IMG/VR virus record: IMGVR_UViG_2713896899_000013
Location: 1 to 14,478 of that record
Strand: one strand, 5' to 3'
From: a virus
Taxonomy: Duplodnaviria > Heunggongvirae > Uroviricota > Caudoviricetes
DNA: 14,478 nt
Both the position numbers and the translations under genes were made by a program. Shown here piece after piece: positions 8,229 to 14,478 of this stretch (the first letter of the stretch is position 1; each line of letters opens with the position of its first letter). The notes below the pieces were generated by a model. It did not search any database, was not told where the DNA came from, and saw only the letters and a program-made list of their open reading frames with translations.

Positions 8229-8318
8229 ACAATATGTACCTCCGGTGTACATATTACATGATTGAAATGAACCTTCAAGATACTTGTACCTTAACGGTAC
8301 AAGGGTTTTAATTTCGTT
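8229..8318. promoter_or_regulatory. Divergent pR/pRM-like control region with two 19-bp operators (core TGTAC-N7-GTACA)
   Basis: Operators ATGTACCTCCGGTGTACAT (8234-8252) and TTGTACCTTAACGGTACAA (8284-8302). Minus-strand promoter: -35 TTGAAG (8278-8273), 16-nt spacer, -10 TAATAT (8256-8251). Plus-strand promoter: -35 TTGTAC (8284-8289), 17-nt spacer, -10 TTTAAT (8307-8312), start near the A of the cI ATG, implying a leaderless cI mRNA. Confidence 0.6.
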
Positions 8319-8993
8319 ATGAAAACAATCCATGACATCCGGCGGTCTAACGCCAGAAAACTGAGAGATGGTGTTGGCGGGAATTCTTCCTTTGCCACTA
8401 TGATTGATCGCGAGCCAACCCAGACCAGCAGGTTTATGGGAGATGGTGCTACTAAAAATATCGGTGACAGCATGGCACGACACATCGAAAAATGTTTCGA
8501 CCTGCCTGTCGGATGGCTCGATCAAGAACACCAGACAACGAACATCACAAAAAAACCTGATGTTTCAATCACTAATAAACAAATCACATTAGTCCCTGTC
8601 ATATCATGGGTACAGGCCGGAGCATGGAAAGAAGTTGGATATTCTGAGGTTGATTTGAGCACAGCAGAAACGTATCCCTGCCCTGTACCCTGTGGGGAAA
8701 TGACTTATATCTTGCGGGTGATAGGTGATTCAATGATTGATGAGTACCGCCCGGGAGACATGATTTTTGTCGATCCTGAAGTACCTGCCTGCCACGGTGA
8801 CGACGTTATTGCATTGATGCACGATACAGGTGAAACCACCTTCAAAAGGTTGATAGAAGATGGGACACAGCGTTATCTCAAAGCGTTAAACCCAAACTGG
8901 CCTGAGCCTTACATTAAGATCAACGGTAATTGCTCTATAATTGGAACTGTGATTTTCTCAGGAAAACCAAGAAGATACAAAATCAAAGCCTAA
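8319..8993 (+). CDS. cI: CI-type prophage repressor (HTH plus S24 LexA-like peptidase domain)
   Basis: C-terminal VIGDSM...GD...FKRL pattern of the S24 self-cleaving domain; divergent from cro; no Shine-Dalgarno, consistent with a leaderless transcript. Confidence 0.85.
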   Translation: MKTIHDIRRSNARKLRDGVGGNSSFATMIDREPTQTSRFMGDGATKNIGDSMARHIEKCFDLPVGWLDQEHQTTNITKKPDVSITNKQITLVPVISWVQAGAWKEVGYSEVDLSTAETYPCPVPCGEMTYILRVIGDSMIDEYRPGDMIFVDPEVPACHGDDVIALMHDTGETTFKRLIEDGTQRYLKALNPNWPEPYIKINGNCSIIGTVIFSGKPRRYKIKA

Positions 8994-9005
8994 TCAATGT
9001 TTATG

Positions 9006-9029
9006 AACCTGCTTCGGCAGGTTTTTTTA
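9006..9029 (+). terminator. Intrinsic terminator after cI
   Basis: Stem AACCTGC / GCAGGTT with loop TTCG, followed by TTTTTTT. Confidence 0.65.
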
Positions 9030-9032
9030 TAC

Positions 9033-9078
9033 TTGACAATGTACCCATGAGATACATAATGTACCCAAGAGAAACAAC
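9033..9078 (+). promoter_or_regulatory. pL-like promoter overlapped by operators of the same family as those at pR/pRM
   Basis: -35 TTGACA (9033-9038), 16-nt spacer, -10 CATAAT (9055-9060); operator ATGTACCCATGAGATACAT (9039-9057) has the same 19-bp TGTAC-N7 architecture; a degenerate second copy lies at 9058-9076. Confidence 0.55.
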
Positions 9079-9145
9079 AAACAGGCAGGACGCCCACGAA
9101 GTAGCCGCCAGGGGCATATGAAGTCCTGGATGATTCGTTAGTAAC

Positions 9146-9170
9146 AAAAAAAGCGTCGTACAGGACGCTT
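9146..9170 (-). terminator. Intrinsic terminator of the minus-strand secreted-protein gene
   Basis: Minus-strand reading: stem AAGCGTC / GACGCTT followed by TTTTTTTG. Confidence 0.6.
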
Positions 9171-9183
9171 CGCTCTTTAACAA
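9171..9183 (+). promoter_or_regulatory. boxA-like element (CGCTCTTTAACAA) directly after a hairpin, about 105 nt downstream of the pL-like start
   Basis: 12 of 13 match to the rrn boxA consensus TGCTCTTTAACAA and contains the lambda boxA core CGCTCTT; hairpin-then-boxA order as in rrn leaders. Confidence 0.4.
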
Positions 9184-9193
9184 TCTGGATGAC

Positions 9194-9709
9194 TTATCGG
9201 TCAGATTTAAACTGGGGTTCTGGCAAAACTGGTGGTGTTGAATCTTCAAATCGTAACCAGTGTTCCCAAATATCATGTGTTCGTAATTTCTGTAGACTAA
9301 TTTGACGCGATGCAATTGCGGAATTAGTGGTTACTCCACCAGAAGCATCGCCCTCTACTGACGTTGAGGCTTTTTCTACTAATTCTGACCAAGCTTCACT
9401 TTCTGCGTCAAAAGCTTCTGTTAAGTCCCGCAGACGCTGTGGCTCATTTTTATGGTCTTCCTTCAAACGATTCAAAGCGGCAGTTGAATACTTATTCCTG
9501 ACCCATTCGATCTGAGTTAGCTGAATCCGCAGACAATTATCTATATCAATGGTTGTGTTCTGAGGCATGTCAGAACAAGAAATATAAAAGGTCACAACTC
9601 CACCGTTCAAACTACTGCCCGGTTCGATTAAAACATTAGAGGAATTTGACGTAGTCGGCAATATTAATGCTAACGACAAAACCACATGTTTAACAGAAAT
9701 CGCACCCAT
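9194..9709 (-). CDS. Small secreted/periplasmic protein (171 aa), possibly LprI/DUF1311-like; gene lies antisense to the pL direction
   Basis: AGAGGG Shine-Dalgarno upstream of the ATG at 9709; N-terminal hydrophobic signal-like segment VVLSLALIL; own terminator; the family guess is weak. Confidence 0.55.
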   Translation of the reverse strand: MGAISVKHVVLSLALILPTTSNSSNVLIEPGSSLNGGVVTFYISCSDMPQNTTIDIDNCLRIQLTQIEWVRNKYSTAALNRLKEDHKNEPQRLRDLTEAFDAESEAWSELVEKASTSVEGDASGGVTTNSAIASRQISLQKLRTHDIWEHWLRFEDSTPPVLPEPQFKSDR

Positions 9710-10040
9710 TTAAATTGCCCTCTTAAGAACAAGGTCATCCAGATTAACCGAAACCTGGTTATTGGGGAATAACCAAATCCACCTCGCCTGATGTGGCTAA
9801 AAGCAGGCACATAACAGCTAAGTATTTTCAACCAGAGAGAATCCTTAGCGTTGTGGTGAATGCGGCTCAGCGCACGCGGGTTAAGGTTGAGGCTGACAGT
9901 CGACCTTCTGTGGATACCCACCCGTCTGGTGTGCAACCTTCGCCAGGCACCGGGAGGCACCCGGCACCACAACTTTATGCTGTGTGTAGTCTTGGGGGTA
10001 CCAGTTTGTACCCTTGCTTCCGGCTGGTACCGTCCTTTTT

Positions 10041-10129
10041 ACAAAACAGAGAAGAGCATCACCGGACGACGGGCTCATAACCCAATCCATCCGGGCGGCT
10101 GCCACCGCAGGTGTTCTTCTCTGTTTTGT
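10041..10129. repeat. Perfect 15-bp inverted repeat (ACAAAACAGAGAAGA / TCTTCTCTGTTTTGT) flanking a 59-bp GC-rich segment
   Basis: Read directly; arms at 10041-10055 and 10115-10129; lies in a non-coding, hairpin-rich stretch immediately upstream of the yfdP-like gene. Confidence 0.8.
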
Positions 10130-10177
10130 GGAGAAACCAACTGGCCTTGCAGGGTCGATATGATGAGGAGCAGCAAA

Positions 10178-10540
10178 ATGGCTAGCGAACGCAGTACTGA
10201 TGTGCAGGCATTTATCGGGGAGCTGGACGGCGGCGTATTTGAAACCAAAATCGGCGCAGTTCTCAGTGAAGTCGCTTCCGGTGTGATGAACACGAAAACC
10301 AAAGGTAAGGTCTCACTCAACCTGGAAATCGAACCATTTGATGAGAACCGTGTGAAAATCAAACACAAACTCTCATATGTTCGCCCGACTAACCGCGGGA
10401 AAATTTCCGAAGAAGACACCACCGAAACGCCGATGTATGTCAATCGCGGTGGTCGCCTGACTATTCTGCAGGAAGACCAGGGACAATTACTAACTCTTGC
10501 CGGTGAACCTGACGGAAAACTCCGCGCAGCAGGTCATTAA
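10178..10540 (+). CDS. YfdP-like hypothetical protein (120 aa)
   Basis: GAGGAG 7 nt upstream of the ATG at 10178; size and position upstream of the YfdQ-like gene match the CPS-53 yfdP-yfdQ arrangement as I recall it. The track ORF 9860-10540 is a non-coding upstream extension. Confidence 0.6.
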   Translation: MASERSTDVQAFIGELDGGVFETKIGAVLSEVASGVMNTKTKGKVSLNLEIEPFDENRVKIKHKLSYVRPTNRGKISEEDTTETPMYVNRGGRLTILQEDQGQLLTLAGEPDGKLRAAGH

Positions 10541-14372: not shown

Positions 14373-14478
14373 ATGGCAAGAAAAACCAAGCCGTTAACCG
14401 ATACGGAAATCAAAGCCGCCAAACCTAAAGATGCCGATTACCAGCTGTATGATGGTGAAGTGGTCAACAAAAACTGGC
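14373..14478 (+). CDS. 5' end of a second tyrosine integrase, P4 / CP4-57 IntA-like (partial; runs off the window)
   Basis: MARKTKPLTDTEIKAAKPKDADYQLYDG matches the N-terminal arm-binding motif of P4-family integrases; GGAG 7 nt upstream; located after the ssrA 3' end as intA is in E. coli K-12. Confidence 0.7.
   Translation, partial: MARKTKPLTDTEIKAAKPKDADYQLYDGEVVNKNW

Follow-up and report, generated by a model that had tools for sequence, protein, structure and literature searches.

Why would a temperate phage keep a gene for a small, apparently exported protein on the strand opposite to its own early-left transcription, and what would such a protein do for the lysogen that carries it? 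The question is raised by an open reading frame (ORF) of 171 codons with an ATG start, encoding a protein of 171 amino acids, on the minus strand of the IMG/VR virus record IMGVR_UViG_2713896899_000013, which we analyzed from position 1 to position 14,478 (hereafter the window, meaning this whole stretch of 14,478 nucleotides). The window belongs to a lambdoid prophage of the e14/SfV/SfIV type (Escherichia albertii/E. coli). An initial reading of the same sequence, hereafter the original prediction, had singled out this antisense ORF for its own Shine-Dalgarno sequence, which is a good one, and its signal-like N-terminus, both of which are present as described. We find that the ORF, which we call the cargo gene, is a genuine single-gene moron, a real gene rather than a chance reading frame, and that it is a divergent phage-borne addition to a known protein family, lodged in a moron slot, a type of locus that is itself familiar.

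A phage-borne member of the LprI/DUF1311 family

The reality of the cargo gene follows from two observations: it has evolved under purifying selection (the ratio of nonsynonymous to synonymous substitution, dN/dS, is 0.10-0.22 for four homologues at dS of 0.9-1.6), and a protein identical to its product turns up in 96 public assembly blocks. An entry 99% identical to the protein carries the name Escherichia albertii, and a homologue with ~79% DNA identity occupies the same position in 138 of 5,426 complete E. coli genomes, where it is annotated as a "hypothetical protein." The sole phage-family match is PHROG 7681, itself of "unknown function," and neither the gene nor the architecture of its slot appears in the literature on SfIV, e14, and YmfK.

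The original prediction had ventured a weak resemblance to LprI/DUF1311 proteins, and the kinship has proved stronger than that wording implied. In a single-sequence, phmmer-type search of 5.8 billion sequences, annotated LprI-family proteins of Vibrio and Agarivorans matched at E values of 1e-7 to 5e-4; a family profile search then returned 965 cluster representatives at E<=1e-3, and 45 of the 47 representatives sampled from it match Pfam LprI (PF07007), the best at an E value of 1.5e-18. On these three grounds we regard the LprI/DUF1311 kinship of the cargo protein as secure. The proposed check by a DUF1311 hidden Markov model thus bore out the homology by profile search, while the direct Pfam score of the protein itself, 17.1 bits (E 0.0075) against a cut-off of 22, remains below the gathering threshold; the sub-threshold alignment nevertheless spans residues 45-145 of the protein and profile positions 1-104 of 106. 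The strongest conservation in the subfamily lies outside the Pfam domain, in a C-terminal motif of the form H-x-x-W-x-x-(W/F)-L ... D-S-T-P-P-x-L-P-E-P, of which the DSTPPxLPEP portion is common to the larger subfamily. Fusions seen in longer relatives (TonB_C, DUF6265, and MreB-like) were considered as a clue to function and proved uninformative.

The AlphaFold model (predicted local distance difference test score [pLDDT] 78, predicted template modeling score [pTM] 0.74) consists, in protein numbering, of a disordered leader, a beta-hairpin at ~31-43, three long helices, and a C-terminal strand, so that the core is modeled as the three-helix bundle of the DUF1311/LprI family; the N-terminal beta-hairpin is an addition of the prophage clade. 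A search of the Protein Data Bank with the family profile found only 3GI7, at an E value of 0.47. All four family cysteines are present in 137 of 169 aligned relatives. In the prophage clade, by comparison, C45 and C59 are kept and C3 and C4 are both missing in 17 of 17 full-length sequences (S115 and R135 stand at these positions in the cargo protein), neither being lost singly in the clade. Because this clade has lost C3 and C4 jointly, we infer that the family forms disulfides C1-C2 and C3-C4, the second of which the prophage clade would have dispensed with.

The N-terminus carries the features expected of a signal peptide. The protein begins M-G-A-I-S-V-K-H, continues with VVLSLALIL, the most hydrophobic 9-mer in the protein (mean Kyte-Doolittle value, 3.23), and then reads P-TTSNSS, in which S-N-S places small residues, both serine, at -3 and -1 of a putative cleavage site. 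The h-region is short (9 amino acids), too short by its sequence to serve as a membrane anchor, and there is no lipobox. Homologues show a clearer ...ASNA|SD cleavage site, the family has canonical signal peptides, and an E. coli variant with a different start region retains the signal features; in the model, residues 1-25 are disordered (pLDDT <50). The tripartite organization, the S-N-S site, and the sites in homologues together argue for a signal peptide, and export most likely proceeds by Sec, with cleavage near residue 24 giving a soluble, acidic periplasmic protein with a predicted mature form of ~147 amino acids, 16.6 kDa, and pI 4.8.

A slot for exchangeable cargo downstream of a candidate pL

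The cargo gene follows a cI-like repressor gene and its terminator, lies ahead of the early-left genes, and converges with a strong promoter overlapped by an operator-like sequence (Table 1), in agreement with the position and orientation originally reported. The palindrome TGTAC-N7-GTACA has two exact copies between cI and cro (8235-8251 and 8285-8301) and a third, one-mismatch copy between the hexamers of this promoter, making three sites against 0.18 expected by chance. Since the promoter has the best sigma-70 score in the window and overlaps such a palindrome, it is very probably a repressor-controlled pL, firing into the antisense strand of the cargo ORF; the geometry, with the promoter on the plus strand and the cargo on the minus strand, agrees with the earlier statement that pL transcription would be antisense to the gene. 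Positions 8252-9141 share 98.5% identity with the part of the cryptic E. coli K-12 prophage e14 that lies near ymfK, and SfV-type phages are reported to be without N, cII, and cIII (PMC3851460).

Comparison with SfIV sets the limits of the cassette. Homology ends at 9188 and restarts at 9739, and window positions 9189-9738 are replaced in SfIV by 682 bp holding orf35/36; the terminator and the upstream sequence, lying outside this break, are therefore backbone rather than cargo. Klebsiella prophages likewise conserve the upstream element, and their coding region is only ~72% identical to that of the window over the aligned stretch. In e14 itself (NC_000913.3, 1201069-1202933), the equivalent slot holds ymfI, on the opposite strand, and ymfJ, which follow a divergent version of the upstream element.

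To survey the slot, we scanned IMG/VR with a 28-nucleotide piece of the upstream element and recovered more than 120 loci, 114 of which were analyzable. These hold at least eight unrelated cargo families: an SfIV gp36-like protein of 144 amino acids (52 loci), a coiled-coil/CxxC protein of ~171 amino acids (24 loci), a protein with two transmembrane segments (2-TM; 14 loci), the LprI-like protein (13 loci, counting the window and 4 loci outside the scan), a 167-amino-acid protein (4 loci), a 95-amino-acid protein (2 loci), and singletons (3 loci). Neither Pfam nor PADLOC gave an informative match to the other cargo families. The first ORF mostly starts ~99-100 nucleotides from the start of the search pattern, exceptions to this register being the 2-TM type and a small number of rare cargos, and in all 112 loci with a called ORF it has the same orientation, which was the only orientation searched. 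The view of this position as a slot for variable accessory genes is thereby upheld. The cargo gene had been described as "inserted"; exchangeable cassette is the better term than insertion. The terminator, on the other hand, had been credited to the gene as its own; it belongs to the slot and is common to all cargo types, as does the ~80-nucleotide upstream element. Among the marks of a moron, those found here are the polymorphism of presence or replacement among collinear phages (the 682-bp replacement in SfIV and the at least eight families) and a terminator at 9171..9150 on the minus strand followed by a T run, though it is the slot that owns it.

The cassette also travels. An identical cassette was observed in prophages at three chromosomal sites, near ykgR/rpmE2, holD/rimI, and lexA/zur (loci L132-L135). 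Cassette-bearing prophages have two repressor types, one of 224 amino acids with S24 only and one of 208 amino acids with HTH_3 and S24 accompanied by a P22-type Cro, and the occurrence of the identical cassette beside both indicates that it moves between immunity groups. The slot is at the position where lambda carries rexAB, and it offers a compact place in which to seek new lysogenic-conversion or defence genes.

The slot architecture, the covarying repeats that flank it, and the exact boxA beside them are the most unusual features of this locus. On the plus strand, the terminator hairpin directly precedes a 12-mer, GCTCTTTAACAA (9172-9183), which has a single exact match in the window and which equals the boxA consensus shared by rrn operons and lambdoid nut sites; this boxA is conserved as ...GTTAAAGAGCG/T... 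after every cassette. The inverted repeat around the cassette is retained as 13 bp in the E. coli and Klebsiella homologues. Across the slot, the sequences of the arms change with the type of cargo and the arms stay complementary, as in the pair AATCTGGATGACT/AGTCATCCAGATT: most other cargo types have GGATATCC/GGATATCC-type arms, the 2-TM type has GTAACCCTC/GAGGGTTAC, and the 167-amino-acid type shows a double core change (AATCTT.../...AAGATT). Duplex energies over 29 distinct pairs, drawn from 109 loci, averaged -22.8 kcal/mol for cognate arms and -17.0 kcal/mol for non-cognate arms. Pairing was better on the pL strand in 21 of the 29 pairs, which are not independent of one another, and on the cargo strand in 4, among them the three closest LprI cassettes.

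It is conceivable, though rather doubtful, that base pairing between the arms within the pL transcript loops out or processes the antisense cargo and so insulates early-left expression, an arrangement that would resemble the processing stems flanking 16S rRNA next to boxA. Another possibility is that cassettes are exchanged by recombination at the arms. We considered and dropped readings of the repeats as integron attC or invertase sites, as homology between loci runs past them. A hairpin, then boxA, then the 5' arm of a long-range stem is an order reminiscent of rrn leaders. Single-sequence folding of the upstream element and of the pL leader gave z-scores near zero on both strands, and Rfam returned nothing credible for the whole window at gathering score or for 8950-9950 at E<=5. 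It appears that prophages of the e14/SfV type devote a position just past pL to a plug-in slot made up of the hairpin, the exact rrn-type boxA, a variable single-gene cargo antisense to pL, and the conserved 80-nucleotide element, and this platform may matter more than the gene that it holds. Such a slot is a testable case of phages keeping their accessory genes from disturbing early transcription.

Three smaller observations concern the sequences in and around the cassette. Within the upstream element, 9752-9781 forms a perfect hairpin of 10-12 bp, TTTGGTTATT-CCCC-AATAACCAGG on the minus strand; the hairpin has two mismatches in the other five loci, and the five substitutions of the window therefore all improve pairing. 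Inside the cargo antisense, 9428-9442 on the plus strand is a terminator-like hairpin with a T-rich tail on the pL strand, and, should it function, transcription from pL would get through the cassette only with antitermination. Finally, in 2-TM loci (L010, L023, L064, and L074), short stretches on either side of the main ORF, inside the repeat arms, apparently encode proline-rich peptides, roughly ...PPxPKPP....

How might a gene in this position be expressed? The best candidate for its promoter, TTCCCC-17-TAATCT, scores 5.1 versus 13.3 for pL, and a -10-like hexamer (TAATCT, TATAAT, or TATTAT) is kept at the same place across cargo types, which hints faintly at a promoter of the slot whose transcripts would begin near 9734. 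In a lysogen, cI would shut pL and the weak promoter in the upstream element would transcribe the cargo, the slot terminator ending the transcript before pL and cI; on induction, the far stronger convergent pL would read through the cassette antisense. That the cargo is expressed in the lysogen and silenced on induction is a plausible reading, and the geometry, a weak leftward promoter facing a strong repressor-controlled pL, fits the idea of lysogen expression.

Table 1. Coordinates of the features in and around the cargo slot (positions in the window)
Feature	Position	Strand	Remarks
Cargo gene	9194..9709	-	Precursor, 171 amino acids, of DUF1311/LprI-like protein; dN/dS, homology, model
Signal-peptide-like segment, codons 1-24	9638..9709	-	n-region with K7, h-region V9-L17, c-region TSNS|S
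Shine-Dalgarno AAGAGGG	9718..9724	-	8 nucleotides 5' of the ATG; read from the sequence
Conserved slot element	9739..9816	-	~80 nucleotides upstream of the cargo; before every cargo type and in Klebsiella prophages
Candidate cargo promoter	-35 TTCCCC 9769-9764; -10 TAATCT 9746-9741	-	Inside the conserved element; the sole match resembling a cargo promoter
Intrinsic terminator	9140..9171	-	8-bp stem 9171..9150, 6-nucleotide loop, T run; 22 nucleotides past the stop
boxA-like CGCTCTTTAACAA	9171..9183	+	On the pL transcript, directly after the hairpin
Left inverted-repeat arm AATCTGGATGAC	9182..9193		Perfect 12 bp, flanks the cassette
Right inverted-repeat arm GTCATCCAGATT	9734..9745		Perfect 12 bp, flanks the cassette
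cI-like SOS-cleavable repressor, YmfK/CohE type, Peptidase_S24	8319..8993	+	Divergent from the Cro-like gene
Repressor terminator	9005-9024	+	After the cI-like gene
Candidate pL, TTGACA-16-CATAAT	9033..9060	+	Top-scoring sigma-70 match of the window (13.3)
Operator-like TGTACCCATGAGATACA	9040-9056	within pL	One-mismatch copy, between the two promoter hexamers

Beyond the slot, the first early-left ORF (9860-10540, plus strand) encodes 226 amino acids and has no Pfam match. Its counterpart in E. coli genomes is split between two features, YfdP (120 amino acids) and a "frameshifted hypothetical," and the frame in the window is therefore intact and fused.

Candidate functions of the cargo protein

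The reading that we tentatively favor is that the cargo protein is a periplasmic binding inhibitor of a muramidase, protecting the lysogen. In the lysogen, the protein would bind and neutralize a peptidoglycan-cleaving enzyme entering from outside, and the host, and with it the prophage, would be protected. In rough order of likelihood, the target might be a lysozyme-like effector that a competitor delivers through its type VI secretion system (T6SS), the tail-associated lysozyme of a superinfecting phage, or an animal lysozyme. A body of work on the family makes such a role conceivable. Proteins with an LprI domain and a signal peptide have been predicted to be orphan immunity proteins against lysozyme-like T6SS effectors in Pantoea (PMC9796082) and, likewise, immunity proteins beside WHIX effectors (PMC12135965); the DUF1311 protein Etsi4 rescues the toxicity of Etse4 in enterohemorrhagic E. 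coli (PMC12981562); and LprI of Mycobacterium tuberculosis, which also has an MliC domain, inhibits lysozyme (Sethi et al. 2016, as cited in PMC7933661). If the reading is correct, the LprI-like cargo would be the first DUF1311 inhibitor of cell wall hydrolases to be carried by a phage, temperate phages would be spreading a ready-made periplasmic immunity among Escherichia and Klebsiella, directed against contact-dependent killing, other phages, or host lysozyme, and a function would be assigned to PHROG 7681 and to a "hypothetical" gene of ~2.5% of complete E. coli genomes.

Several lines of evidence weigh against inhibition of a muramidase. "Lysozyme inhibitor" is a family name that overstates what is known: lysozyme inhibition is reported within the family for M. 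tuberculosis LprI alone (PMC7933661), and ScwA, a periplasmic protein with an LprI domain only, gives no protection from lysozyme and instead modulates MltD (PMC7933661). The cargo protein, moreover, lies under the Pfam threshold and is without two of the four family cysteines, and direct comparison with Etsi4 revealed no pairwise similarity. Searches with the protein returned no match from PADLOC, NCBIfam, the BFVD viral fold library, or, by tblastn, 50,697 deposited phage genomes; a structural match to TsiV3 was only at the level common among helical bundles. No convincing sigma-70 promoter was found within 300 nucleotides upstream of the gene. Among the 140 immediate neighbors of 80 chromosomal members of the subfamily (one genome per species), T6SS, toxin, and cell wall hydrolase families are absent from the 25 commonest Pfam families, and this lack of enrichment lowers the likelihood of cognate immunity in particular. 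No effector gene was seen in the window, and neither an adjacent effector nor a T6SS island accompanies the cargo gene, which could possibly be an orphan immunity gene. The relatives in Vibrio and Agarivorans stand alone or head an operon of genes of unknown function. The nearest chromosomal relatives from Vibrio (L130, 5001-8853; L131, 5001-8847) head a conserved operon with six further genes, for which Pfam has nothing on record beyond a faint TPR and NCBIfam gives one PA3715-family and one TPR match.

The main rival explanation, which we think unlikely, is that the periplasmic cargo protein binds a host protein and reprograms the envelope of the lysogen, its target being a lytic transglycosylase, as for ScwA and MltD in Salmonella, or, on the model proposed for UmoC-type proteins, an input to Rcs signaling. 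The precedent is direct in one respect, in that periplasmic ScwA alters MltD levels and leaves lysozyme resistance unaffected (PMC7933661), and the chromosomal relatives of the cargo, standing alone without a toxin partner, look like housekeeping envelope factors. ScwA, however, is a protein of 275 amino acids with another architecture and four cysteines. A Vibrio LprI-like relative does match the NCBIfam UmoC model, but weakly (E 3.7e-4) and far below the cut-off, and the cargo protein itself matches no NCBIfam model at all; nor is the gain for the prophage evident.

Superinfection exclusion in the manner of T4 Spackle, in which a periplasmic block of the tail-tip lysozyme of incoming phages would leave their DNA unable to cross the wall, is in our judgment quite unlikely, although the slot is the classical site of exclusion genes, the other cargos likewise come from small, functionally uncharacterized genes of the sort seen in defence hotspots, and the small helical model, signal-like N-terminus, invariant cysteine pair, and a family name drawn from lysozyme inhibition all suit such a role; the cargo protein matched neither a known defence model in PADLOC nor the fold of T4 Spackle.

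Very improbable, finally, is a gene of the lytic cycle, made after induction, for instance to retard or adjust the GH24 endolysin of the phage itself, with an antisense position devoid of regulatory meaning: the absence of a good sigma-70 promoter upstream of the cargo, the PF00959 lysozyme-type endolysin of cassette-bearing prophages, and an SOS time course in which ymfI, in the equivalent slot of e14, rises modestly (log2 ~2, against 4.8 for ymfJ) late in the response (PMC11002266) all speak for it, but ymfI is a different protein, in a data set that may not be strand-specific, a strong convergent pL would oppose transcription of the cargo after induction, and the orientation and upstream element are constant over all cargo types, whatever is encoded, which indicates an expression logic that belongs to the slot and is not specific to lysis.

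Relation to known systems

The cargo protein stands beside several described systems, from each of which it departs in some respect. The family itself, PF07007 LprI/DUF1311, has a solved example in PP0307 of Pseudomonas putida (PDB 3GI7). Compared with it, the cargo protein taken alone falls below the gathering threshold, is without the second cysteine pair, has an extra N-terminal beta-hairpin (~31-43), and is phage-borne, with a C-terminal DSTPPxLPEP tail outside the Pfam domain. With M. tuberculosis LprI it shares the DUF1311 domain and an extracytoplasmic location, which for the cargo protein is a prediction. The mycobacterial protein, though, is a lipoprotein with an additional MliC domain that is by itself sufficient for lysozyme resistance (PMC7933661), and the cargo protein has neither lipobox nor MliC domain.

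ScwA of Salmonella is again alike in its LprI domain and in its location, shown to be periplasmic for ScwA and only predicted to be so for the cargo protein (PMC7933661); the cysteines of ScwA matter for its stability, and its gene was horizontally acquired (PMC7933661). ScwA differs in being chromosomal and longer, with a C-terminal domain and the full complement of cysteines, and in modulating MltD rather than inhibiting lysozyme. T6SS immunity of the Etsi4 type differs in its setting, for the cargo has no effector or T6SS gene nearby, and none of the 25 commonest families beside the 80 chromosomal relatives is of that kind.

As a locus, the cassette is closest to lambda rexAB, e14 ymfI/ymfJ, and SfIV orf35/36, all of which occupy the same position, bounded by transcription signals, and like lambdoid morons it is polymorphic by presence or replacement between otherwise collinear phages. 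Its product is nevertheless unrelated to the products of rexAB, ymfI/ymfJ, and orf35/36. Its orientation sets it apart from rexAB as well: rexAB is co-transcribed with cI, and the cargo gene is convergent with pL.

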